A stretch of 64,000 bases of DNA from a virus. Its lineage: Duplodnaviria > Caudoviricetes. The position numbers were made by a program, and so were the translations under genes. The stretch is taken from positions 2,358-66,357 of the IMG/VR virus record IMGVR_UViG_3300025905_000003; one strand, written 5' to 3'. Below are positions 14,376 through 57,572 of this stretch, one piece after another. Under the pieces are notes generated by a model. It saw nothing but the letters and a program-made list of their open reading frames with translations. It was not told where the DNA came from and did not search any database. The first letter of the stretch is position 1, and each line of letters starts with the position of its first letter.

Positions 14376-17082
14376 AAAGAAATCCGTCGAAAAAGAATAT
14401 AATGACCAAGATCATCCTGATGATGGCGGTAAACTTGAGGCTGGCCCAGGTCGTGAGAGCTTTAAATTAGCTCAATACTGGAAATCTCAAGTAAATGCAT
14501 ATGATGAAGCTTCTGCGCGTTGGGTAAAACGTGGGAACACAGTTATTAAGCGTTTTAGAGACGAACGCAGCCGTTTAAGTGAAGAAGGTCAGCGCCGCAT
14601 GAACCTTCTTTGGACTAATTATAAGATTATGAAGCCGGCGGTATTTTCTAAGTGCCCTATTCCCATTATTGATAGAAAATTCTTAGACCGAGATGTAACA
14701 GGTAGGCTATCTTCTCAGATATTAGAGCGATCTGTAAAGAACCAATTAGATACTAATGGTTTCTTTGATGCGGTCAATATGGCCGTTGGTGATAAACTAT
14801 TGCCTGGTAGAGGCGTAGTTTGGATTAGATATGTCCCAGAAATAGGTGAAGGTGTTAGTATATCAGCGCCCACCAAAGATGGCGCAGCAGATCCTCTTTA
14901 CAAGATAGAAGAAGAATTTGGCGATGATGAAGATACCGACGAAGAAGAAAAACTTGAAGAAACAGGGGAAGAAGTCTTATCGGAAAACACAGAAATCGAC
15001 TATGTTGATTGGCGGGATTTTTATGTCTTCCCAGTTAAGGCTAGGAATTGGAAAGAAGTACAAGCCATCGGCAAAAAGACTTACATTACTAAGAAGGAAG
15101 CCAAAAGAAGGTTTGGAGAAAAGATAGGCGAGGCTCTTAAACCTGATACAGAGCCCCAAATATTAGGTAATGCTGAGCGTCAAACTTATTCTGAAACTGC
15201 TATTTTCCAAGATGCTAACGAGCGTAACATAGTTGTATATGAAATCTGGAATATCTCAGATAAGAAAGTATATTGGCATTCTTCAGGTTATGATTATTTA
15301 TGCGACATAAAGGAAGACCCGTTAAAGTTAACTGGGTTCTTCCCAGTACCTAAGCCTTTATTCTCGACTATGACTAATGATACTTTATTCCCTGTTCCTG
15401 ATTATATGGAATGGCAAGACCAAGCTATTCAAATTGATGAATTAACGCAACGTATAGCTATGCTTACTAAGTCTTGTAAGGTAGCTGGTACATACAACGC
15501 AGCCGTGCCTGCTATTAATCGTATATTCAACGAAAGTATAGAGAACGAATTAATTCCTGTAGATCAGTGGGCTATGTTCGCCGAAGGCGGTGGCCTAAAA
15601 GGCGCAATAGATTTTATTCCTATTGATCAAGTACAAAAGTGCATAGAGACATTACAAAAAGTTCGCCAGCAAGCAATGATAGATTTAGACCAAGTAACTG
15701 GTTTAAGTGATGTTCTAAGAGGCACAACTGATAGCAGAGAAACACTCGGCGGTTTAAAATTAAAGAATAACAATGCTGGTACAAGATTATCTGAAGACCA
15801 AGAAGAAATATCTAGGTTTTGTAGAGATGTTATAGTCTTAGTTTCAGAAATTATATGTAAGCATTTCTCAGATGAGACTATTATACAGAGCTCGGGTATC
15901 TTGTTTGAGGACGCACTGCAGCCAGATACAATAATGCGGGAATGGTTAGAAGTTAATGCTCCCGAGCAAGCCCCATCGCAAGGCCAAGGACAGCCACCAC
16001 AGGGGCAACAACCACAACCGGGGGGAGGACAGCCACAGGCGCCAAAACCCATGATAGCGCCAATGCCGAAGCCTGGAATGCCTCCGCAGCCAGGTTCGCC
16101 ATTAGCACCAATGTTAGCGCAGCTCCAGGCGTCTAATGTTATTCCGTTTAATCCTTCTGCTCCTCTACAGCCGCAACCAACTATGTTGCCGCCGCAGCCA
16201 CCTGACCCTGAAGTTTTAATAATGCAGAAGGTGGATAAGGCTATTAAATTACTAAGGGACGACGTACCGCGAGGCTACCGCATAGATATAGAGACAGACA
16301 GCACTATTTTTGGAGATAAATATCAAGAACGCCAAGACGCGACAGAGTTTATTGCTGCTTTAGGTGGTTTCTTTAAACAGTTTGAGACGATTGCTCAGAG
16401 TGCGCCACAGGCTCTCCCATTATTAGCTAAAACTCTCCAGTGGGGAGTTAGAAAGTACCGCACTGGGCGTGATTTAGAGAGCGAAGTTGATAACTTTGTC
16501 GCCAAAATGACTAAAATGGCTAAACAGATGGAGGATAATCCACCTCCGTCGCCAGAAATGGCTAAAGCTCAGTCTTCTATAGAAATAGAGAAAACAAAGG
16601 CTGGAATACAAGCTCAAAACGATCAGCGCGACCAAGAACGTATGGAAAGGGACGATCAGCGCCAATTCCAGATGGATCAGGCTAAAGATCAGCGTGAAAA
16701 AGAAAAAATGCAGATGGAAATGCAAATAGAGCGCGAGAAACATCAGCTTGAACGCGAAAAAATGCAAATGGATATGCAATTAGCTCGCGAAAAACATCGT
16801 ATGGAGCTTGAAAAGTTACACGCTGGTATTCAAGCAGATCAGCAAGAGCACGCATTAGATGCACAAGCTCAAATTACTGAGCATCAATTAAGCGCACAAA
16901 GCCAACACGAAGAGATAGCTGCAGAACGCGAAAAATCTCATATGCAAATGCAGAATGAGAGATATAAAGCAGACGTACAAAAACAAACATTAGATCAAAA
17001 ACAAGAAGCTAATGAAGCAGCGCATAAATTAAAGATGAAGCAACAGGCTCAGAAACCTAAACCGAAGAAAAAGGCTTCCTAA
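14365..17082 (+). CDS. portal protein (905 aa) with long C-terminal coiled-coil barrel
   Basis: W.KRG..V.KRFRDE, NLLW.N...MKPAV, D.LLPGRGV.W, DYV.W.DF, PL.L.GFFP.P.P, IETDSTI patterns of Bcep22/P22-like portals. Confidence 0.9.
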   Translation: MARKKKSVEKEYNDQDHPDDGGKLEAGPGRESFKLAQYWKSQVNAYDEASARWVKRGNTVIKRFRDERSRLSEEGQRRMNLLWTNYKIMKPAVFSKCPIPIIDRKFLDRDVTGRLSSQILERSVKNQLDTNGFFDAVNMAVGDKLLPGRGVVWIRYVPEIGEGVSISAPTKDGAADPLYKIEEEFGDDEDTDEEEKLEETGEEVLSENTEIDYVDWRDFYVFPVKARNWKEVQAIGKKTYITKKEAKRRFGEKIGEALKPDTEPQILGNAERQTYSETAIFQDANERNIVVYEIWNISDKKVYWHSSGYDYLCDIKEDPLKLTGFFPVPKPLFSTMTNDTLFPVPDYMEWQDQAIQIDELTQRIAMLTKSCKVAGTYNAAVPAINRIFNESIENELIPVDQWAMFAEGGGLKGAIDFIPIDQVQKCIETLQKVRQQAMIDLDQVTGLSDVLRGTTDSRETLGGLKLKNNNAGTRLSEDQEEISRFCRDVIVLVSEIICKHFSDETIIQSSGILFEDALQPDTIMREWLEVNAPEQAPSQGQGQPPQGQQPQPGGGQPQAPKPMIAPMPKPGMPPQPGSPLAPMLAQLQASNVIPFNPSAPLQPQPTMLPPQPPDPEVLIMQKVDKAIKLLRDDVPRGYRIDIETDSTIFGDKYQERQDATEFIAALGGFFKQFETIAQSAPQALPLLAKTLQWGVRKYRTGRDLESEVDNFVAKMTKMAKQMEDNPPPSPEMAKAQSSIEIEKTKAGIQAQNDQRDQERMERDDQRQFQMDQAKDQREKEKMQMEMQIEREKHQLEREKMQMDMQLAREKHRMELEKLHAGIQADQQEHALDAQAQITEHQLSAQSQHEEIAAEREKSHMQMQNERYKADVQKQTLDQKQEANEAAHKLKMKQQAQKPKPKKKAS

Positions 17083-27767: not shown

Positions 27768-29913
27768 TTCAGTAGATGATGTCTATGGCTCAAATGTTGG
27801 CGTAAATTTTGCTAAGATGATGGCGGAAGCCTTATCTAAGCAGGGCAATTATGTGCCTAATGCTGATATGGCTAAGCTGCCAGGCTCTTGGATGTACGGC
27901 GTTCCAAATATACTTAGCGCCTTAGCTGGTAACCAGTATAGAGACATAGCAGGCTCACAAGATAAAGTTCTTAGAGATAGGATGACTGATCCTAATGCGC
28001 AACCCGGAATTAAAAGTTATGGATATCCGGCTAGTCAAGTACAGGGTCCGGCTGCTCCTCAAGGATCATCTAATAAAGTAGCATCTTTAAATCCTTCTGC
28101 TACAGAGCCTTCTGGTGATAATATATCGACTGCTTCTTTGCCGCCAGAAAATATAACTGGTCAGAACACTGGAGTAACTAGTGAATTTTTAGATAAAGTA
28201 AAAAGCATAGAAAATAATACAGGTAATCCTGCTTATGTTAATGAATATGGATATAAAGGTGATTATCAATTTTCAGATGAAGAAATAGCAAAATATGGTC
28301 TAAGCGGTGGAAGGTGGAAAGATCCTAAACTTGCTAGAGAAGCAGCGGCTAGAAGATTTACAGATTTAAATAATCAATATAAAGCTGCGACAGGTAAAGA
28401 TGCTGACCATGGTACTCTTTATTTGATGCATCAGCGTGGTTTTGATGGGGCTATGAAAGGAATACAAAACCCAGATAAACCTGAATGGATTAATATGCTC
28501 AATACAGGGGAAGGTCGAGCTAGATATGATAAAGATCCCCAAAGTGCAATAGCTTGGGCTCAGCGTGCAGTGTGGGCAAACGTACCAAAAAAAGATCCAA
28601 CCAGAATACAACTACAAAAACAGTATGGAAAAGAATGGTACATGAAAATGACTTCAGGTCAATTTCAACCTATATGGACTAAGAGGTTTGGAGGTACCAA
28701 TCCTGCATCTAATGAAGGTCTTTCTCCGAATGCGTCTCTTACGGGTCAAGAAGGACAACCCGAGTTAGCCGGCGGTCCAACTGCTGACACTATAGATCAA
28801 ACTGAGCAGGGTGCTGTAAGCGCTCCAGGCGCCGCGCCTATTGAAACTGGCGCTACTAAGACGGCTCAAGCCTTTCCAACTACGCCTACAACCGTGGGGC
28901 CTCAGGGCGCAATTCCGCCGGCAAATCCAATAGAAAGTGATGCGCAGTTACAGGCTAGATTAAGGTATTCTGATGATCCAGATAAAGTATTAGAAAGTTA
29001 TTTAAAGCGTAAAGAAGGCAGGGAGTACGAAACTGCTACCGGCAAACAAACCGTTACGCCTACAACTCCAGGGCAACAGCCTATTGTTACTGAGCGGGAT
29101 ACTAGAGCATTCCCTCTTTCTATTGGCGATCTACATTTGCAGCTTATCCCGAACGGACAAGGCGGATTTAGTGCTGCATTGCCAGGAGGCGGAACTAAAG
29201 ATTTTAAGAGTTTAGATGAAGTTTGGAAGTGGGCACAGGAAGGCCATGCTAGAGGAACAGAATTGAATACAAGAGCTGAGAAACAAGCTACACGTTATGA
29301 AGACATTAAGGGCCACGCTGAGCAAACATATCAAACTACTGCAGATAGAGGAACACAATTAAAGTTAGCTTCCCAGCTTGTAAACGATCCTAAATTTATT
29401 TCAGGTTCGTTTAAAGATCAAAGAGAAATGATTAGTAAATTTTTTACTACGCTTAAATTAGCACCTCCTGGTAGTGGTTCAGATGTTACACAAGCGTTTG
29501 TTAAGTTGGTAGCTGGTAATATTCTTGATGATATTAAAAGTCTAGGAGGTCAAGGACTAGGTCAAGTACGCCAGAAGGAAATGGATATAATTGAAAAAAT
29601 GAATGCTACACCTAATATGTCGCCTGGAGCAGTTAGAGCTGTTGTAAACCTTATGCAAAAAACTAATGATAGAATGCAAAATCATAATGATCAAGTATTA
29701 GATTATGCTGCTGAGCATGGTGGTAATGTAGATGCTGGTTTTTACCGTAAGATGCAGAAATTTTATAGAGATAATCCTTTGATATCGCCCGAAGAAATGG
29801 CTAATTATAGAGAGCTCTTTAAGCTTGATAAAGATAAGGGAACCACTACCACAGAAGGCGATACTAAAAAGAAATGGAGAATAAACGAGAAAGGCGCATG
29901 GGAATTTAAATAA
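27760..29913 (+). CDS. large ejection protein with a lysozyme/transglycosylase-like domain
   Basis: FLDKVKSIE..TGNP......YKG.YQF resembles the SLT/lysozyme core; start refined to ATG 27760 (ORF track 27490). Confidence 0.7.
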   Translation: MPNSVDDVYGSNVGVNFAKMMAEALSKQGNYVPNADMAKLPGSWMYGVPNILSALAGNQYRDIAGSQDKVLRDRMTDPNAQPGIKSYGYPASQVQGPAAPQGSSNKVASLNPSATEPSGDNISTASLPPENITGQNTGVTSEFLDKVKSIENNTGNPAYVNEYGYKGDYQFSDEEIAKYGLSGGRWKDPKLAREAAARRFTDLNNQYKAATGKDADHGTLYLMHQRGFDGAMKGIQNPDKPEWINMLNTGEGRARYDKDPQSAIAWAQRAVWANVPKKDPTRIQLQKQYGKEWYMKMTSGQFQPIWTKRFGGTNPASNEGLSPNASLTGQEGQPELAGGPTADTIDQTEQGAVSAPGAAPIETGATKTAQAFPTTPTTVGPQGAIPPANPIESDAQLQARLRYSDDPDKVLESYLKRKEGREYETATGKQTVTPTTPGQQPIVTERDTRAFPLSIGDLHLQLIPNGQGGFSAALPGGGTKDFKSLDEVWKWAQEGHARGTELNTRAEKQATRYEDIKGHAEQTYQTTADRGTQLKLASQLVNDPKFISGSFKDQREMISKFFTTLKLAPPGSGSDVTQAFVKLVAGNILDDIKSLGGQGLGQVRQKEMDIIEKMNATPNMSPGAVRAVVNLMQKTNDRMQNHNDQVLDYAAEHGGNVDAGFYRKMQKFYRDNPLISPEEMANYRELFKLDKDKGTTTTEGDTKKKWRINEKGAWEFK

Positions 29914-35426: not shown

Positions 35427-36923
35427 CTAGTACTCTACATCCTTCACAGTTTCTACTAACCACTTCTCCTCTAAATTCCATTCAGTATGTCTATTTACTC
35501 TCTCGCTCCATATCGCCCGTAAAAGATTTAATTCAGGAAATACATATATTCTAGACTTATTAGTCCTACTTGGAACGATACCCAATACTTTCATAAAACT
35601 TGCTAGGCCTCTGCTTGTTATAGTTTTATAGCTAGGATCTAAGTTATGTATATAAGACATTAAGTTTCTAGAAGTTATAGTATATTCACCCTTATAATTT
35701 ATGGCTCCTGGGAATGTGCCTTCTTCTAGGAGTTCTAATATACAATATTTTACCTTAGGTAATGTTAAACTTATCTGTTTTTTCAATTCTTCGGTTTCTG
35801 GAATATTATCTCTAGGCGCCCATCTGTTTAGACTTATATGCAATAGATCATATAACATGGCTCCTAAACCATCGCCCTGAATTTCATCCCAAATATCAGT
35901 AAAGTATTTGTTTCTAATATAATCAGCGCAGTCCCCTTTGGCATACTTATTATCTATCTCGTTTATAAAATATCTTCTTTCGTCTTCGGTTGCGGGGATA
36001 ACCCAATCAGAGTTAGTAGACATAGTTATATGCAAGCAGTTCTTGCATATTTTTAAATTTCTGAATTTAGCTTCTATAGCTAGCGTTGGCTCGGTTATGA
36101 GGTTTTTCAAAACACCCTCAACCTCTTTATCCCCTGGATAGTAAGCTTCATCCGCATAGAGGTATGTAGAGAACTCTAGATGTTGGTTGTACTTACCAGT
36201 TAAATGTTCCCTATTAGCCACAACTAACCCATGTCGGCCAAAAAGTCTAGCCATACTTTGCAGAATTACGCCCTTGCCTGTGCCTTTTTTGCCCTTAAAG
36301 ATCAGTGCAACTTGTGCAGGCTTACCCGGATACTGCACAGCATATGCAAACCAGCGCATGACGTACTTAAACTTTTCTTTGTCTGAGTTACAGAGTATCC
36401 TGTATATATGTGTTCTTGTCTTCTTCCATGAACCTTTCTTAGGCTGTACTGCTAGCCCTTCCCACATATTAAAGTAAGCATCGTTCTCTAGGATATACTC
36501 GCCCGGTTCTTTCTCGGGCTCGAAAGTAGTTGTTTTATATGTTCTTCTATGGGCGTGCCCTAGCCACCAATCCCCCATCCTCATGAGGCTATCTTTGCCT
36601 GATTTAGTACTGGCATCAACTAGAGTATTTTGGTAGATAGTTTTGATGGCTTCGGGTAGTATATACTCGAATATTTTCTTGCCAAAAACCTCATTGTAGA
36701 CTTTGGCAAGGATCATAGGCTTGCCGCTGATACTATCTATAAAAGCATACTTATCGTTCATTCGTTTGAGTTCGGGCTCGTGCTCTTCAGCTATGTCCCT
36801 AGTCTGAAAATGCGTACCTGTTGTTAGTATATCTTCGCTGTTGCTAGACAGCTGTTTAGCTATACGTTCGCGTTGTTTTTGGAGATTGATCAGATTGTCA
36901 TCTGTCATAACATAGATAACCAA
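35427..36923 (-). CDS. SF3/D5-like helicase (DUF5906-type NTPase)
   Basis: Walker A G.KGTGKG, Walker B YADEA, LKNLITEP, M.TN..WV.PA..DERR. Confidence 0.9.
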   Translation of the reverse strand: MVIYVMTDDNLINLQKQRERIAKQLSSNSEDILTTGTHFQTRDIAEEHEPELKRMNDKYAFIDSISGKPMILAKVYNEVFGKKIFEYILPEAIKTIYQNTLVDASTKSGKDSLMRMGDWWLGHAHRRTYKTTTFEPEKEPGEYILENDAYFNMWEGLAVQPKKGSWKKTRTHIYRILCNSDKEKFKYVMRWFAYAVQYPGKPAQVALIFKGKKGTGKGVILQSMARLFGRHGLVVANREHLTGKYNQHLEFSTYLYADEAYYPGDKEVEGVLKNLITEPTLAIEAKFRNLKICKNCLHITMSTNSDWVIPATEDERRYFINEIDNKYAKGDCADYIRNKYFTDIWDEIQGDGLGAMLYDLLHISLNRWAPRDNIPETEELKKQISLTLPKVKYCILELLEEGTFPGAINYKGEYTITSRNLMSYIHNLDPSYKTITSRGLASFMKVLGIVPSRTNKSRIYVFPELNLLRAIWSERVNRHTEWNLEEKWLVETVKDVEY

Positions 36924-37984
36924 ATATCATTAAGGTCCGCATACTTGCCATTTGGTTTTTTAATAGGATCTATATGCAGCTTGTCTATCACCAATCCAAG
37001 CTTAGCACTAGCATCTAAGTTTTTTAGTAGCTTGTTATAAGAGTTTTGCCCCGCTGGATCAGGGTCAGCTGCGATTATTAGTTTTTTAACTTGGCCTGGT
37101 GGCTTCAGATTAGCGACGTTAGAGCTAAATATTCCACACCAAACAAATTTAGCTCCCATTACTCTTAGAGTGAGAGCATTCTCGGGTCCTTCAGCAATGT
37201 GTAAAGTACTATCTAATTCGCCAAACCAGATGCCTGCACCCTTAATAGAAGCGAGAGCCATTTTAGGGTTCTCGACGTCTGCCTTGCGCTTGCCATCAAA
37301 GTTTAAGAATATCCTATGTATGGCTACTAAAGGACCCTCATAGGAAGTTTGAACTTTAAAGAGTATAGCGGGAAAACTCTGCCTAGTGGGAGAATATACT
37401 ATATGGGGGTGAAATCTTATGTTCTTTTCTTTTATATAAACCTTACGGGTCTCTAAGTAGGTTTGCCCAACTGAGCCCTCTAAAGGATGATACTTAGAAC
37501 TCTCCCATAGGTCGTTAGCGTATTTTCTTATTTTCTCTGCTTTTTCAGTTAATTCTTTCTTTCTTCTTTCGGCTGCGTCTGAAGCTGGGTTTATGTATTT
37601 CTCTGATCCGACAATAGCTCGAAGGTCATTATTAAGGTATTCTGCTGCTTCTTTATAGTTGTTAAGACGGTATATTCTTTGAGATAGTCCAATAACATCA
37701 AATCCGACTTTAGATTGAGAGTTTTCGGCGAAGCCAGTATAATCTGACTTGGTAAACCCCTCGCCAAGAAGTTTGAAATCATTGTCTGTAAGAAAAGTTC
37801 CAGCGAAATCAGCGCCCCTTCCTTTATTAGAGTTGAAGCGACATGAGCCGAAATTCCTATCTTGTCGCCATGTCGCAAGTAAGTCGTATTCATGTTCCGT
37901 TATCTTTGTAAATTCTATTTTCCAGAGGTCTAAGAGAAGTTCGAAGTTTGCGAGTGCCTTTTCTCGCAGTGTATCGTACTTCAT
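36905..37984 (-). CDS. TOPRIM-domain primase
   Basis: YL..R...., AIHR.FL..DG..KA...PKM.L, IAEG.E.AL, IAAD.D.AG. Confidence 0.85.
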   Translation of the reverse strand: MKYDTLREKALANFELLLDLWKIEFTKITEHEYDLLATWRQDRNFGSCRFNSNKGRGADFAGTFLTDNDFKLLGEGFTKSDYTGFAENSQSKVGFDVIGLSQRIYRLNNYKEAAEYLNNDLRAIVGSEKYINPASDAAERRKKELTEKAEKIRKYANDLWESSKYHPLEGSVGQTYLETRKVYIKEKNIRFHPHIVYSPTRQSFPAILFKVQTSYEGPLVAIHRIFLNFDGKRKADVENPKMALASIKGAGIWFGELDSTLHIAEGPENALTLRVMGAKFVWCGIFSSNVANLKPPGQVKKLIIAADPDPAGQNSYNKLLKNLDASAKLGLVIDKLHIDPIKKPNGKYADLNDIWLSML

Positions 37985-38027
37985 ATGTCTACGCTACCCC
38001 TAAACAGGCTATTTAATGGCCCGTACC

Positions 38028-38056
38028 TTGACAATATAGCCTGACTGACTTATAAA
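38028..38056 (+). promoter_or_regulatory. sigma70 promoter of the nrdJ leader
   Basis: TTGACA-N17-TATAAA. Confidence 0.75.
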
Positions 38057-38062
38057 GGGGTT

Positions 38063-38351
38063 AGACCATAACAGCGATGCCTCGCGGTTGTGTCCACCTC
38101 CCTCTCAGGCCCTCCAGCAACCCGCTGTGAGGGCCTTCCTTTTAACCATAGCCCAAGTCACACCGTGCCGGCAAGGCGCCAGCCCTTGGGGCTCCTAGAG
38201 GCGTGCAGACCCTATTGCTTGTGTGTCGGCCTTGGGCTACACTCGCCTCTTGGGTCTAGGGTCCTCTGTGTGCGTCCGCATTGCGGTGCAATTCCGCAGT
38301 CCTCATAGCGGGCTCTAGCCCCCTAAAAACCATAAAAGCCGAGGCATCAGT
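38063..38351 (+). ncRNA. ~290-nt structured GC-rich 5' leader of nrdJ
   Basis: Closing stem 38076-38084/38340-38348 covers the GAGG SD; several hairpins; T-loop-like hairpin 38282-38298. Confidence 0.55.
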
Positions 38352-40112
38352 ATGTCTATGTTTTCTCCTACCAAGGGCGAATTTTACCCAAATTTGCCAA
38401 ATCACGAACTAGCTTATTATGATCAACTTCATCAAGAAAAATACAGAGACGAAGGCCAAACTAAAGAAGAACACCAAAAAACAATTGCAACCAACTTAGC
38501 TAGTAGTGATATACATAAGTCTTTTTTATATAACAGTCTAATAGAAAACAGATTTCTGCCTGCTGGGCGTATTCAGGCGGCAACCGGGGCAACTCAACGT
38601 GAAGTATCTCCCTTTAATTGTAGTGTGTCCCAGCATATTGATGATAGTATGGATAGCATCATGGCTGCACTCAGTAATGCTGCCAAGATATTGCGCCTTG
38701 GGACTGGCATTGGTTACAATTTTTCTAGTCTGCGTCCTCGCGGAGCGGAAATTAGGAAACTTAAAACGGTCTCGACAGGACCGTTAAGCTTTATGAAAAT
38801 ATTTGACATTATGGCTAGCACTATTGCTAGCTCCGGCCATCGCCGTGGCGCACAAATGGGGATAATGAATGTCAGCCATCCAGATATCGAAGCATTCATC
38901 GACGCTAAAATGTCAAAGGATGCGTATCGCCAGTTCAATCTATCTGTTGGGGTTAGTGATTCGTTTATGGCCGCAGTCCATTATGATGCCGATTGGCCTC
39001 TTATTTTTAACGGCCAAGTATATAGAACAGTACGAGCTGCTCAGCTTTGGGAAAAGATTACTAGAAACGCATACGAGAGCGCCGAACCCGGTATTATATT
39101 TATAGACCGTTTAAACGATCAAAACAACTTACACTATTGCGAAACTATTGAGGCAACTAATCCCTGCGCCGAACAACCTCTTCCCCCTTATGGTTTGTGC
39201 TCGTTAGGTAGTTTTAATCTGGTAGGGTATGTAAATTTAGATAAAGAAGGCAACCGTGTATTTGATGCTAGTCTATTTAAGAAGGATATACATGCTTGGG
39301 TTGAAGCTTATGATAATATTTTTGATAATGCTATTTACGCTATTCCCGAGCATAAAGAAGAGGCTATTTCAAAACGCAGGATAGGCTTAGGATTTACCGG
39401 CATAGCTAACGCTATTGAATGGCTATGCGAGGAACCCAACTATGGCGAGCCAGAGTTTTGTAGTGTGTTGGACAGGCTGTGCGATACTCTTAAGACAGAG
39501 TGCTATAAAGCCTCGATTAAATTGGCAAAAACCCGTGGGCCTTTTTCAAAGTACGGTACTGACTATTTACAGAGCAAGTTCGTCAAGTCGCTTTCACCGT
39601 ATTTGCAAGACCAAATTATGTTTCACGGCGTTAGAAATTCCCACCTTATTAGTTACGCGCCCTGTGGAACTATTTCACAATGTGCACATAACGTTTCTTC
39701 AGGCGTGGAACCCGTTTTTTACTATGAAATGAATAGAGATGTTTACATGAAAGAGGGTAAAATAAATGTTACTCTCAAAGATTATAACTACCGTAAGTTC
39801 GATTTTAAAGGTAAGACACTTAATGATTGCTCTGTTGATGATCATATGCGGGTCGCTACTACTATACAGCGCCACTGCGATAGTTCAATTAGTAAGACAG
39901 TGAACGTAGCTGCCGGTTGTACATACGAAGACTACGCCAAAATCTACGTTAAAGCGTTTGAATTAGGTTTAAAGGGTATTACAGTTTATAGGCCTACTCC
40001 TCTTAGGGGAGCTGTAATAGTAGAAACTAAGAAAGAAAAGTCTGCTTATAACGTCCTTACTGATAGTTTTGTGTCTCCCTCTAACTGCGCTAATGGCGCT
40101 TGTTCTCTCTAG
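38352..40112 (+). CDS. nrdJ: class II (adenosylcobalamin-dependent) ribonucleotide reductase
   Basis: RFLPAGR, FNC, RRGAQMG, FN.SV, TNPCAEQPL, APCGTIS; no NrdB/beta-subunit gene in the window. Confidence 0.88.
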   Translation: MSMFSPTKGEFYPNLPNHELAYYDQLHQEKYRDEGQTKEEHQKTIATNLASSDIHKSFLYNSLIENRFLPAGRIQAATGATQREVSPFNCSVSQHIDDSMDSIMAALSNAAKILRLGTGIGYNFSSLRPRGAEIRKLKTVSTGPLSFMKIFDIMASTIASSGHRRGAQMGIMNVSHPDIEAFIDAKMSKDAYRQFNLSVGVSDSFMAAVHYDADWPLIFNGQVYRTVRAAQLWEKITRNAYESAEPGIIFIDRLNDQNNLHYCETIEATNPCAEQPLPPYGLCSLGSFNLVGYVNLDKEGNRVFDASLFKKDIHAWVEAYDNIFDNAIYAIPEHKEEAISKRRIGLGFTGIANAIEWLCEEPNYGEPEFCSVLDRLCDTLKTECYKASIKLAKTRGPFSKYGTDYLQSKFVKSLSPYLQDQIMFHGVRNSHLISYAPCGTISQCAHNVSSGVEPVFYYEMNRDVYMKEGKINVTLKDYNYRKFDFKGKTLNDCSVDDHMRVATTIQRHCDSSISKTVNVAAGCTYEDYAKIYVKAFELGLKGITVYRPTPLRGAVIVETKKEKSAYNVLTDSFVSPSNCANGACSL

Positions 40113-42059: not shown

Positions 42060-42320
42060 ATGTCATTACTCAGGTGCGTTGCAAAGTTGGTTAGGCGAGT
42101 AGTGGGTCGTACTATGAAGAATGGTAGAAAAATGGGACATTCCGCACGTAATGGTAATGCAGCCTCCCCATATCAAAAGTACAAAAAGAAACCGTTTCGT
42201 TATAGTCAGGCTTACTATGACTGGCGCAACAGTGTCATGCGCAGCAAACCCTCGACTAGTAAAAATTACAAATCAGATAATCGTAATGGTGTAAGGAAAA
42301 TGAAGCTGGCAGCTGAATAG
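42060..42320 (+). CDS. basic hypothetical protein whose stop codon abuts tRNA-Leu
   Basis: ORF track 42042..42320; GGGAG SD before ATG 42060. Confidence 0.4.
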   Translation: MSLLRCVAKLVRRVVGRTMKNGRKMGHSARNGNAASPYQKYKKKPFRYSQAYYDWRNSVMRSKPSTSKNYKSDNRNGVRKMKLAAE

Positions 42321-42405
42321 CGCTCTTGGCGAAACTGGTAGACGCAAGAGACTTAAAATCTCTCGGGTAACTCCCTTGCCGGTTCGATCCCGGCAGAGCG
42401 CACCA
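42320..42405 (+). tRNA. trnL: tRNA-Leu(TAA) with encoded CCA
   Basis: GCGCTCT/AGAGCGC acceptor, AGAGA-CTTAAAA-TCTCT anticodon arm, long variable arm, GTTCGATCC T-loop, ACCA end. Confidence 0.95.
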
Positions 42406-42911: not shown

Positions 42912-42986
42912 GGACCCGTAGCATAATGGTAATGCCGGCAGCTCATAACTGTCTCTATCTGGGTTCAATTCCTGGCGGGTCCACCA
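42912..42986 (+). tRNA. tRNA with CAT anticodon, probably Ile2 (lysidine) rather than Met
   Basis: GGACCCG/CGGGTCC acceptor (G1-C72, so not fMet; C4-G69 and C5-G68 as in TilS substrates), GGCAG-CTCATAA-CTGTC, GTTCAATTCC, ACCA. Confidence 0.9.
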
Positions 42987-44822
42987 ATGCCTGATATTGA
43001 AAAGTTTTTTCGTATTTTAAATGAGACTAGAGAACCCGCGTACGATGTCGAAACAAGTGGACTTGACTGGAAAAGATGTTTTGTATGCGGCTATTCTGTG
43101 TCAGACGGCAGTGATGCTGAGTATATACCTGTTCGACATGCTGGGGGAGGAAATATTTCTTGCATTGAAGAATTTGAGCGTACTCTTGGCCGTGATATTG
43201 CTCGCCACCCTGGAAAAATTGTCGGTCATAATATAAAATTCGATATGCATTTTTCAGAGAACCATGGCATTAAACTTGGCGACAAGGTTAAATGCACAAT
43301 GGCTCGGGAAGCTATTATCGATGAAAATAGGAGGTCATACAGCCTTGAAAACGTATGTAAATCCTATGACGGAGTTACCCCTAAGCTGGGTAAAGACTTA
43401 TATATACACATTGCCAATCAATTTGGATGCGCACCTACCCGTGATAGTATGGGCTTGTTTTATCGCTTGCGTGGCGACGATCCCGTGGCCGTGGATTACG
43501 GTGCAGGGGATACATTATCAACTAGCCAATTGGCAATGGCTCAAGAGAAAAAGATATACGAACAAAGGCTAGATATCGTTACAGATATGGAGCATCACCT
43601 TACTTATGTGCTCCAGAAAATGGAGCGCAGGGGAGTAAGGGTAGATCCCGAAAGACTTGTTCAAGTAAACAACGAAGTCGGGGAAATGTACTATAAAGCG
43701 CTTTCCCAGATTAAAGTAGAAATAGACGAGTATGGGGTAGAAAAAGGTATTAATGTTAGATCAGGTAAAGATCTTAAAGAATACTTTGAAAGTTGTGAAA
43801 TAGACGACTGGCCAATGACTGCGCCTAGTCAAAGATTTCCTAATGGGCAACCTTCCTTCAATAAAGATTTTCTCAGCTCGACAGCTGAAGGTTTGGCGAT
43901 CTTAAATGTTAGAAAATTAGCTCACTTAAAGTCTTCTTTCTTAGAAGTATTAGACGATTATATATACAAGGACAAAATACACACTACGTTTAATCAAACT
44001 AGAGGCGAAACACATGGAACTCGTTCTGGGAGGCTTTCTAGTTCTTGGCCTAATATGCAGCAGGTTCCAAAACGCGATAAGCAACTTGGTCGTATATATC
44101 GCCGTTTGTTTGTCCCTGATCGAGATTTCTTTTATATTGAGTACGATTATTCTCAAGCTGAACCAAGACTTTTTACTCACTATTCTCAGGAGCCGGCTTT
44201 TCTAGAAGGTTACAGAAAAACACCCTTTATTGATATGTATGATATCATTGGGTCGTATATACACCAACCACGCGACAGATGTAAGACTATTGGCCTTGGT
44301 ATTATGTATATGATGGGAGCAGGCAAGTTAGCTCTGCAGCTTGGTATAAGTTATGACGACGCTTTAGATATCCTAAAGGACTTATCAGCGCGATTTCCTA
44401 AGATGCTTGGACGTGATTATAATAATCCAGGTTTTACGGAGAAAGCCGCGCAAGTGGCACAGAACCGCAGCTATGTTAAAACAATTCTTGGCCGTCGTTC
44501 TCGCTTTGATAACCCTAGATTTGCTTATCGTGCTGCTAACCGGATCGTACAAGGTGGTTCTGCGGATATTCTAAAATATAAGATTGTACAAATAGATAAC
44601 TACTTAAAACAAAATAACCTAGAAGAAGTCTGTCATATGTTATTGAATATTCACGACGCAGTGGTATTTCAGATACATAAAGATTATGAGCATTTAGTCC
44701 CTATTCTGGCTTCTATGTTTGAAGATGTAAATGGTCCGCCGTTTAATTTATCTGTTCCGTTTGTAATGGACTATAAGAAAGGCTCAGATTGGTCGGAGGC
44801 GACATATGGAACAGGAGCCTAG
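42987..44822 (+). CDS. polA: family A DNA polymerase with 3'-5' exonuclease
   Basis: Exo I DVETSG; motif A DYSQAEPR; motif B KTIGLGIMY (Leu at the E. coli 762 position); motif C IHDA. Confidence 0.95.
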   Translation: MPDIEKFFRILNETREPAYDVETSGLDWKRCFVCGYSVSDGSDAEYIPVRHAGGGNISCIEEFERTLGRDIARHPGKIVGHNIKFDMHFSENHGIKLGDKVKCTMAREAIIDENRRSYSLENVCKSYDGVTPKLGKDLYIHIANQFGCAPTRDSMGLFYRLRGDDPVAVDYGAGDTLSTSQLAMAQEKKIYEQRLDIVTDMEHHLTYVLQKMERRGVRVDPERLVQVNNEVGEMYYKALSQIKVEIDEYGVEKGINVRSGKDLKEYFESCEIDDWPMTAPSQRFPNGQPSFNKDFLSSTAEGLAILNVRKLAHLKSSFLEVLDDYIYKDKIHTTFNQTRGETHGTRSGRLSSSWPNMQQVPKRDKQLGRIYRRLFVPDRDFFYIEYDYSQAEPRLFTHYSQEPAFLEGYRKTPFIDMYDIIGSYIHQPRDRCKTIGLGIMYMMGAGKLALQLGISYDDALDILKDLSARFPKMLGRDYNNPGFTEKAAQVAQNRSYVKTILGRRSRFDNPRFAYRAANRIVQGGSADILKYKIVQIDNYLKQNNLEEVCHMLLNIHDAVVFQIHKDYEHLVPILASMFEDVNGPPFNLSVPFVMDYKKGSDWSEATYGTGA

Positions 44823-50031: not shown

Positions 50032-50446
50032 ATGGCTACCATGGGCAGCGGGAGCGGCGGGTTTAACCGCTCTCCTTTCCTGGCTTCCAGGTGGTGGCGC
50101 GATTGTAATTGTTTTAACCTCTGCTTTACGGTTTTTGGCTTCTTTGTTTGAAATGATATCCCCACTAATTAATGCCCTCTTTAGTGGGGTTATTTGGTTA
50201 TGGAAAACTGTATTTCTGCCTGGGTTGCTAGATATCTTAGACAGCTGGGTGACTATAGTTACTGTGCTAACTATGGGAGCTATAATGTGGTTTGCTTTTG
50301 TATCTAGATATGAACTCCAGGCCTCAGGCGGAAATAAAGAATTAGCAGTCTGCCAGAAATCCTTATCGCAATGCAAAGCTGTATCCACAACTAAAGAGCG
50401 TCCGGCTGAGGCTGATACGCCGTTTCCCTGGCTATTCTGGCGATAG
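49994..50446 (+). CDS. multi-TM lysis-cassette membrane protein (holin or spanin-like)
   Basis: Three to four hydrophobic helices, overlaps the endolysin end; start refined from 49973. Confidence 0.55.
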   Translation: MEILTQLQTQFNEWLPWAAGAAGLTALLSWLPGGGAIVIVLTSALRFLASLFEMISPLINALFSGVIWLWKTVFLPGLLDILDSWVTIVTVLTMGAIMWFAFVSRYELQASGGNKELAVCQKSLSQCKAVSTTKERPAEADTPFPWLFWR

Positions 50447-50512
50447 GGTGGTATGGGTGGCCTCCTGACCTCGGGGAAGCCCCACAGCCTCAAATTTCGC
50501 AGGGAGAAGGCC

Positions 50513-50815
50513 ATGGCATTGGCGAGGAAGCCATACAAGGACATGACCCTTGATGACGTTCGCGCGTTGATAAGGCAAGTCAAGGAAGAAGGCCTAAAAA
50601 TACAGTCACACTATAAGAAGCTTGAGCTTTACTATTCAGACTGGGAAGATGATTTAAAATATGTGGACGATATTATTGCTAAAGTATGTGAAGACACGGG
50701 CGTTGAGAAAGAAGCGCTAGAGACTGAAGATGATGATTTTTCAGAGTTTCTTGAAGATGACACTTTGAAAGAATCCAATAATGGGGAGACGTATGGCTTA
50801 TTAGACGAACTCTAA
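50513..50815 (+). CDS. acidic-tailed hypothetical protein
   Basis: AGGGAGAAGG SD before ATG 50513. Confidence 0.65.
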   Translation: MALARKPYKDMTLDDVRALIRQVKEEGLKIQSHYKKLELYYSDWEDDLKYVDDIIAKVCEDTGVEKEALETEDDDFSEFLEDDTLKESNNGETYGLLDEL

Positions 50816-56544: not shown

Positions 56545-57572
56545 GATAAATGCTCCACTTTTAACGCGGTTCCTGCTTTAAGTTTCATAGTAGCCCTGTG
56601 CCCACTAATTACCCAAGTAAGCTTAGAAGCCTCCATTCCTAAGCCTGGTCTAATAGATCTGACGTTACCCATTGTAAACGCCTCGCCCTCTTCTATGTCT
56701 CTAACAACATAAAGAGAACGTCTAAACTGTCTAGAGGGTACTTCTTCGGGCAATACAGTTCTAAAAGTAGCCTCGGCTGCTTGCCGGCAATACATACAAT
56801 AAAGTTTAAATTCGTGGGGATGTAGCGAAAAACTTTCATCCTCCGAGTGCGTCCCCTGCAAGGCTAGGTGTTTCTCAAGCATTACAGCCCCAAGGGCGGC
56901 AGCGAGCGGGCCGGCAATGATCCCCCTAGTGTGATCCGAGAAGCCTACAGGGAGCCCGAAAACGTCCCCTAGCGTCTTAATCTTGTGAAGGTTGCAGCGG
57001 TCTAACTTAGTAGGATAGGCAGAGATACAGTGTAATAGAATTACGTTTTCTGGATTGCAACACGCCACAGCGTCTTCTATCTCAGGGATGCTCGCCATAC
57101 CTGTAGATAAAACCATAGGCTTATTTTGTTTTGCTATGTGTCTTATCAAAAAAGTATCTGTTAGCTCAAAGCTAGCTATCTTAAAAGCCTCTAGTTTTAT
57201 GTAGTTAGGAGCCCAAGGTGAGAATACACTAGCAAAAATAGGTATGCCTATAGTTTCTGCATGTAAAATTAATTCTCTGCCCATCTGGTAAGTTGTTTGT
57301 GTTTTCTCATATAAATCATATAAGTTTCTGCCCGCCCATGTGCCCTCTAAGATATCAAACCCATTAGCTAAAGCCTTGCCTCGGTCTACTTTAATAGTCA
57401 TATCATCAGGTGTATATACTTGTATCTTTACCGCGTCGGCTCCTGCGGCCTTGGCTTCTTCTATGAGAATTTTAGCTTGAGATAGGTCACCCTCGTGATT
57501 GCACGATATCTCTGCTACAATAAAAGGATGTTTATCGTGGCCTATATCTTTACCTAGAAAGCTAGTTAGCAT
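56541..57572 (-). CDS. pseI: pseudaminic acid synthase (NeuB family) with SAF domain
   Basis: IVAEIS.NH.G, GADAVK.Q.Y, W.G..LYDLY, KIASFE, STGMA, LHC.S.YP, G.SDHT, EKH, D..FSL.P.EF, FRRSLYV. Confidence 0.92.
   Translation of the reverse strand: MLTSFLGKDIGHDKHPFIVAEISCNHEGDLSQAKILIEEAKAAGADAVKIQVYTPDDMTIKVDRGKALANGFDILEGTWAGRNLYDLYEKTQTTYQMGRELILHAETIGIPIFASVFSPWAPNYIKLEAFKIASFELTDTFLIRHIAKQNKPMVLSTGMASIPEIEDAVACCNPENVILLHCISAYPTKLDRCNLHKIKTLGDVFGLPVGFSDHTRGIIAGPLAAALGAVMLEKHLALQGTHSEDESFSLHPHEFKLYCMYCRQAAEATFRTVLPEEVPSRQFRRSLYVVRDIEEGEAFTMGNVRSIRPGLGMEASKLTWVISGHRATMKLKAGTALKVEHLS

Follow-up and report, generated by a model that had tools for sequence, protein, structure and literature searches.

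The nrdJ locus

The window, a stretch of 64,000 nt analysed as a whole, makes up most of a viral record of 66.4 kb with direct terminal repeats and a GC content of 41.6%. The interval described here is flanked by a leftward primase gene (DUF7146/Toprim, 36905-37984) and a rightward ORF (38352-40112) that encodes NrdJ, with a TIGR02504 (NrdJ_Z) score of 459 bits against a cutoff of 400. The gene is of class II, and the premise of the first-pass annotation that its product depends on adenosylcobalamin (AdoCbl) holds. Its GAGG Shine-Dalgarno (SD) sequence sits 6 nt before the ATG. The longest GC island of the window, 38061-38340, precedes the gene with about 60-65% GC versus 41.6% for the phage. 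The leader as a whole folds more stably than shuffled sequences (z = -3.0), and in its centroid fold the ends are closed through a helix between an anti-SD segment and the SD. The features of the locus, all on the + strand, are:

38028-38056, +: promoter P1, with -35 TTGACA (38028-33), a 17-nt spacer and -10 TATAAA (38051-56), predicted by sequence match
38067-38092, +: anti-SD hairpin with arms 38067-38075/38084-38092, 9 pairs and one A.G mismatch, from covariance model (CM) alignment A8
38076-38084, +: anti-Shine-Dalgarno segment, pairing with 38340-38348 (16/16 leaders, flank covariation)
38093-38106, +: single-stranded C-rich linker, of the UCCCC-AGACUG type in relatives, conserved in alignment A8
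38107-38143, +: intrinsic-terminator-like hairpin with a U-tract, UUCCUUUU, to 38143 (compensatory changes, U-tract)
38144-38214, +: GC-rich (65%) spacer, 68-75 nt long in most relatives, with no detectable structure
38215-38243, +: candidate internal promoter P2, with TTGCTT (38215-20), a 17-nt spacer and TACACT (38238-43), from conserved promoter positions
38244-38250, +: second GCCUC copy nearby (CGCCTCT) that could pair with the SD, located at the predicted P2 start or immediately ahead of it
38251-38339, +: remaining 5' UTR, with variable hairpins (including 38282-38298), a C-run (38319-38323) and an A-rich unstructured linker (38325-38338)
38340-38354, +: target CGAGGCAUC (SD GAGG) and the AUG start codon at 38352, read in the window, with pairing across leaders
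38352-40112, +: nrdJ, class II adenosylcobalamin-dependent ribonucleotide reductase (RNR), 586 aa (PF02867; TIGR02504)

The rightward operon of nrdJ also contains tRNA-Leu(UAA) (42320-42405) and tRNA-Met(CAU) (42912-42986), the latter ending one base ahead of the next large ORF (42987-44822). Further short GC-rich islands lie at 15921-16140, 28791-28940, 50371-50570 and 56811-57010 (0.60-0.64 GC in 120-nt windows). Four close NrdJ relatives (P0038, P0065, P0067 and P0078; 786-916 aa) carry intein, LAGLIDADG or HNH domains (PF14890, PF14528, PF13392) and are intein-invaded versions of the same nrdJ gene.

Homologous leaders in related phages

Relatives of NrdJ with 58-84% identity are numerous in metagenomes. 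We collected 15 distinct homologous leaders from IMG/VR, JGI, ENA, NCBI and Logan contig DNA, which together with the window gave 16; the IMG/VR relatives were retrieved by an alignment-based scan, a single-protein pattern scan having given none. Gene order is identical across the 15 homologous leaders, and a GC-rich block stands ahead of nrdJ in every one. A first alignment of five leaders had a mean column identity of only about 50%, and MAFFT alignments of the module at the head of the leader were structurally inconsistent at the first hairpin and were replaced by an iterated CM. This model, R2, was started from three relatives and iterated to 13 with the window left out. It matches the window at 38065-38144 with 36.3 bits (E 2.4e-6). 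Four complete genomes have a single copy each, and this always lies ahead of nrdJ.

The module appears to be confined to this nrdJ clade in the data searched. Among about 150 loci whose RNR genes are more distantly related, including RNR loci at 38-49% identity, R2 detected no module. The best 7 CM matches among 100 of 120 viral loci, together with one in L089, are ordinary terminators with no anti-SD hairpin. DNA pattern scans of IMG/VR and GTDB returned, among the matches listed, chance GC-rich sequences and no module members outside the nrdJ clade, and BLASTN of the leader against GenBank phages gave no match.

A predicted promoter, two hairpins and a U-tract at the head of the leader

The first-pass annotation had placed a consensus promoter about 290 nt upstream of nrdJ, and this is borne out: P1 is near-consensus, and its predicted start near 38063 lies about 289 nt ahead of the ATG at 38352. 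The layout TTGAC(A/G), invariant 17-nt spacer and TAnnnN recurs in 16/16 leaders, with or without an overlapping upstream ORF, and a promoter-scan tool calls P1 in L004. As would be expected of a small-RNA gene, the module thus has a promoter of its own directly upstream, as far as sequence prediction goes. The -35 of P1 lies within a palindromic TTGACAA/TTGTCAA (window 38000-38035), which places a back-to-back divergent minus-strand promoter ahead of the primase operon; this reads TTGTCA/17 nt/TATAAT in L005 (2126-2154; 11/12) and TTGTCA/17 nt/TAGCCT in the window.

When the first ~90 nt of each leader were folded, the same architecture emerged throughout: a hairpin of 7-10 bp with an 8-13-nt loop that holds the anti-SD, a C-rich strand of 10-15 nt and a strong GC hairpin. 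The 8-nt loop of the anti-SD hairpin in the window, GAUGCCUC, spans 38076-38083. All of its stem pairs (9/9) have changed on both sides among the relatives, 90.8% of cells are paired, and the loop core GCCUC is near-invariant in alignment A8. The linker that follows has no cognate target within the leader (permutation 4055/5000), and its conservation is not explained under a small-RNA model.

The second hairpin consists of an outer stem (38107-14/38129-36) and an inner stem (38115-18/38124-27); 8 of its 11 pairs show compensatory changes and 94% of cells are paired. U7 tracts stand behind the GC hairpin in most relatives, the tract of the window being interrupted (UUCCUUUU), and a scan tool independently calls terminators in L003, L005 and L085. 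A GC-rich hairpin with compensatory changes and a U-tract, interrupted in the window, is the ending that a small-RNA gene would have. The outer stem, AGGCCCTC/GAGGGCCT, had previously been noted as lying inside a riboswitch-like structure; the stem is real and conserved, and it is the stem of an intrinsic terminator rather than the interior of a riboswitch. No antiterminator alternative to it was found in the folds of the relatives.

For the module as a whole, 92.7% of cells are paired and 17/20 pairs have changed on both sides in a 14-sequence CM alignment, whose pair counts lean towards the structure of the model because the alignment was fitted to it. None of 500 shuffles reached the observed values, a count that, like the other shuffle counts given below, is not a probability since the 16 leaders are related; slid controls gave 41-54%. 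The folding z-score is about -4.9 in every homologue. G.U pairs number 15 versus 2 for A.C, so that the RNA lies on the + strand.

Nine relatives carry a small ORF of about 58-86 aa with the motif PYE..Y...R..E....LG..LT between the primase gene and the module (L166:1002-1223, L165:1002-1208, L167:1005-1238, L163:1027-1287, L084, L002, L094, L003 and L085), the window being without it. Its Leu-Thr is encoded by the -35 TTGACA of P1. In several relatives the stop codon of this ORF is the UGA inside the anti-SD loop (GUGAU), and a terminating ribosome would therefore sit on the anti-SD.

From the terminator to the start codon

The spacer behind the terminator has a GC content of 63-74% across the leaders and a mean folding z-score of -0.3, versus -4.9 for the module. 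It is absent in L003, L004 and L085, and in these a second promoter follows a run of T: directly in L004, after 4 nt in L003, and in L085 directly after a second T-run about 40 nt past the terminator. This arrangement is as expected for two adjoining transcription units, to judge from the predicted elements. The constant length and GC-richness of the spacer and a conserved GCCC(U/C)C just 5' of the P2 -35 are unexplained. Rho loading at the spacer (a rut site) was considered; C exceeds G in only 10/16 leaders, and this reading stays speculation.

About 70 nt beyond the module lies candidate promoter P2, with a predicted start near 38250. The promoter-like element is conserved in 12/16 leaders. 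In the anchored alignment of these 12, TTG is present in 11/12, the extended-10 TG in 10/12 and both A2 and T6 of the -10 in 12/12, and the 17-nt spacing is invariant while the sequence of the spacer varies, a pattern typical of sigma-70 promoters. The scan tool calls P2 in L171, where it reads TTGACC/17 nt/TAGAAT (10/12 match), and in L005 and L085. The P2 of the window is weak, with a 7/12 match and no extended-10 TG, and the extended-10 P2 pattern showed no enrichment genome-wide in the window. The conserved P2-like element would split what had appeared as a single leader into two probable transcription units. The complementary TGCCA/TGGCA around P2 was examined as an RNA stem and rejected: its 3' side is invariant and its 5' side varies and breaks pairs, so that there is no covariation.

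The remaining 5' UTR of about 100 nt is moderately structured (mean z -2.3). Its hairpins differ among relatives; the C-run and the A-rich linker recur. Three inner elements proposed at first sight, namely the AGAGGCG/CGCCTCT stem, the GACCCTA/TAGGGTC stem and a "T-loop-like" TGCGG-loop-CCGCA hairpin (38282-38298), do exist in the window; by eye, the two stems have no conserved counterparts in the relatives and the hairpin is not conserved there. A leftward promoter-like site on the minus strand (38329-38358; TAGACA, 18 nt, TATGGT; 9/12) overlaps the nrdJ start and would yield an antisense transcript over the whole leader.

That the GC-rich block instead encodes a small protein is scarcely credible. 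ORFs of 68-86 aa are called in several relatives, and one of 72 aa in the window (38090-38308), but they differ in frame and position, indels are not multiples of three, and the high GC content creates open frames by chance. All-against-all BLASTP gave only short matches of at most 31 bits, which track conserved nucleotide blocks and come from overlapping frames. The called small ORFs are not conserved as proteins, and the protein-coding reading of the leader was rejected.

Pairing between the loop and the ribosome-binding site

In the window, GATGCCTCG (38076-38084) is the perfect complement of CGAGGCATC (38340-38348) over 9 contiguous bp; at the RNA level, GAUGCCUCG would pair with the ribosome-binding site of nrdJ, CGAGGCAUC. 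The exact SD 8-mer (38341-38348) occurs once on the + strand of the window. Within a single genome such a match is unremarkable, as an 8-mer and its complement were found in 41 of 100 shuffles, and the test was therefore taken to the relatives.

Pairing of the SD region, with 6-15 contiguous bp, is present in 16/16 leaders, and the anti-SD lies 10-35 nt past the predicted start. The GCCUC/GAGGC core is near-constant, and the bases flanking it change together. At the second flank position the pairs are A-U (6), U-A (3), G-C (3) and C-G (1), and at the third they are G-C (7) and U-A (3). In L085 and L118 the helix is lengthened on the other side, and L003 has a different helix of 15 bp that reaches the AUG. 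When partners were shuffled among phages, the observed flank pairing was reached in 0/5000 cases, again a count and not a probability; several independent switches in the flanks of loop and SD are evident despite the relatedness of the leaders. The energies of cognate loop-SD duplexes are also better than those of non-cognate ones (11/20000 permutations).

After the costs of opening are deducted, the net loop-SD energy is favourable in 14/16 leaders, at -5.7 to -15 kcal/mol. The two exceptions are the window, with only -2 kcal/mol, and L167; in both, the longer transcript has its SD already covered by a second local GCCUC copy, which raises the cost of opening the SD to 6-10 kcal/mol. The second copy of the window, CGCCTCT at 38244-38250, is not conserved; L167 holds an analogous one past its terminator (1269-1503), where AUGCCUCAC pairs with GUGAGGCAU, the counterpart in the window being CGCCUC.

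The first-pass annotation had proposed that 38076-84 pairs with 38340-48 and covers the GAGG SD, and the comparison across the 16 leaders, with its covarying flanks, gives us high confidence that this helix is real. That the helix represses translation of nrdJ is likely as well. Since the covariation backs the pairing, translational control by occlusion of the SD is the best reading of this part of the leader.

It would be a different matter if the parts were unrelated, with the terminator ending an upstream small-ORF unit, P2 serving as the nrdJ promoter and the complementarity of loop and SD having no function. The conserved small ORF does end at or just before the hairpin in 9 relatives, so that the terminator could serve it. 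However, the window and six other relatives without the small ORF still keep P1, the hairpin and the terminator, and covariation between the flanks of loop and SD would not be expected if pairing were not under selection. We therefore regard a chance assembly of this kind as improbable.

A ligand-sensing riboswitch as an improbable reading

The first-pass annotation had suggested riboswitch-like translational control, possibly of a new class. Of this proposal, occlusion of the SD is supported by the covariation described above; a ligand sensor and a new riboswitch class are not supported. A riboswitch sensing AdoCbl, a dNTP or NTP, or a new ligand and controlling access to the SD would fit a B12-dependent gene and a long, GC-rich, conserved leader with an occluded SD. 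The Rfam comparison that had been suggested as a check speaks against it. A cmscan of 37950-38420 against all 4227 families of Rfam 15 was empty at E values up to 10 except for one minus-strand junk match. At the gathering score, the whole window and the 15 relatives gave tRNAs only and no family on the leader, cobalamin models included. The earlier remark that a B12 box is not recognisable was correct. A phage-associated nrdJ RNA motif was said to have been described, and the phrase "nrdJ motif" was not found in the literature searched.

A riboswitch would further be expected to show a conserved core that pairing leaves unexplained, along with exclusive platform structures, and the leaders show neither. 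Of their structured units only the hairpin plus terminator is conserved, and its invariant loop bases are accounted for by pairing with the SD. There is no conserved multi-helix core outside the 80-nt module, the inner hairpins differ in every relative, and no terminator/antiterminator switch was found. We consider a riboswitch very improbable. As the loop is the exact complement of the nrdJ ribosome-binding site, the element most likely turns translation off by pairing instead.

A probable small-RNA gene at the head of the nrdJ leader

The comparative analysis shows two hairpins, a loop-SD helix with covariation, and conservation of both promoter-like elements and of the U-tract. A dedicated consensus promoter, a structured RNA of 80 nt and a conserved terminator would be explained most simply by a small-RNA gene with a loop antisense to the ribosome-binding site of the gene that follows. 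On balance, we think it probable that the head of the leader is such a gene, whose anti-SD loop represses nrdJ translation in cis on read-through and probably also in trans. The existence of a discrete trans-acting small RNA, taken by itself, we would put at an even chance.

From these elements we infer where transcription starts and stops, what the pairing does and how its action divides between cis and trans. The host RNA polymerase would start at P1 and produce an RNA of about 80 nt, roughly 38063-38143, with most transcripts ending at the GC hairpin and U-tract. The mRNA of nrdJ would probably be made mainly from the weaker internal P2 and, starting there, would lack the anti-SD. The loop GAUGCCUC could then pair with CGAGGCAUC, 3-11 nt ahead of the AUG, and keep 30S subunits off. 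In cis, any transcript that reads through the terminator would carry the anti-SD and should be translationally silent; in trans, the free small RNA would probably bind the mRNA from P2. As a result, NrdJ synthesis would be delayed or capped. A seed of 8 bp acting in trans would call for high levels of the small RNA or for a chaperone. The copy in the window is the weakest in several respects, given its interrupted U-tract, its P2 with a 7/12 match and no TG, and a predicted net energy of -2 kcal/mol.

Alternatively, the element could act purely in cis. All nrdJ mRNA would then come from P1, the hairpin and U-tract would be a leaky attenuator or pause site, and the loop-SD helix would close a leader of about 290 nt and hold translation down until a protein, the ribosome, temperature or processing opens it, with "P2" being a conserved RNA- or protein-binding motif. 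The centroid fold, which closes the ends of the whole leader through this helix, is in line with such a scheme, as are the weak P2 and imperfect U-tract of the window and the GC-richness of the whole interval, which suggests transcription and selection at the RNA level. However, the U7 terminators of the relatives are strong and have no antiterminator alternative, the conservation of P2 is promoter-like with no covariation in TGCCA/TGGCA, and the 70-nt spacer is unstructured and dispensable in L003, L004 and L085. We regard purely cis action as rather unlikely and favour the small-RNA gene.

A more specific version of the small-RNA gene can be put forward tentatively: a free-standing RNA acting in trans on nrdJ mRNA from the internal promoter, whose loop, together with the flanks of its SD target, may have diversified into phage-specific "lock and key" pairs, as in the c4 heteroimmunity of P1 and P7. 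We hold this to be possible but somewhat doubtful. If it is true, each phage would throttle its own ribonucleotide reductase and not that of a co-infecting relative, and a virus would for the first time be seen to control its nucleotide supply by a specificity-coded RNA.

During infection, the supply of DNA precursors is governed by ribonucleotide reductase. To our knowledge, this enzyme is controlled either by proteins (NrdR and the transcription programmes of phages) or, in the case of bacterial genes, by B12 riboswitches. The RNA family described here is conserved among uncultured phages of soil and groundwater that form a clade with sizes of about 62-66 kb, and through it nrdJ translation would be tied to an 80-nt RNA dedicated to this task. 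To the few regulatory RNAs known from phages it adds a well-supported case, one in which natural covariation defines the pairing. Moreover, the compact cassette of two promoters, one terminator and one 8-nt loop is suited to direct reporter work.

Comparison with known systems

Like the cobalamin riboswitches on RNR genes, the element described here is a leader RNA element of an RNR gene that could occlude the SD; unlike them, it has no cobalamin match, no B12 box and no conserved aptamer. The closer parallels are with antisense RNAs. The c4 RNA is encoded ahead of its target, the icd-ant operon, and on the same strand; RNase P excises it from the leader, and it uses two loops. Loop and target of c4 have co-diversified between phages, giving each phage its own specificity, and Rfam holds a C4 model. 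In P1 and P7, the loops are complementary to the ribosome-binding site of the downstream ant operon (PMC12197685). The nrdJ RNA likewise lies upstream on the same strand, and its single loop is complementary to a ribosome-binding site and covaries with it. In contrast to c4, it has its own predicted promoter and intrinsic terminator, with no tRNA-like processing site after the hairpin, and its target is an enzyme of nucleotide metabolism and not an antirepressor or immunity circuit. The two share no homology in sequence or structure, and no Rfam family matches the nrdJ module.

In phage T4, the genes e, soc and I-TevI have an SD-sequestering arm only on transcripts from upstream promoters (PMC3014915). 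For e, soc, 49 and I-TevI, these longer transcripts are poorly translated, and a promoter between anti-SD and SD gives rise to translated mRNA (PMC3014915). Candidate P2 of nrdJ is likewise located between anti-SD and SD; the promoter-like element is clear in L171, L005 and L085 and weak in the window. However, the two T4 arms lie next to each other and fold into a simple local hairpin, and the T4 anti-SD has neither a promoter nor a terminator of its own, whereas the nrdJ arms are 256 nt apart and the anti-SD is placed in a hairpin loop and packaged as a unit from promoter to terminator. In this packaging the nrdJ RNA resembles bacterial and prophage small RNAs with Rho-independent terminators, for example sar of P22, which acts on ant: a length of about 70-90 nt, an exposed seed, a terminator hairpin with a U-tail and pairing to a ribosome-binding site. 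Unlike the nrdJ RNA, which is encoded upstream on the same strand and pairs over only 7-11 bp, sar is transcribed from the opposite strand with full complementarity.

With no match in Rfam and no description found in the literature searched, the nrdJ module appears to be an undescribed family of phage regulatory RNAs that would work by a known principle. Judged by its sequence and predicted structure, it is a member of neither the c4 nor the T4 family and seems to combine the principles of both.
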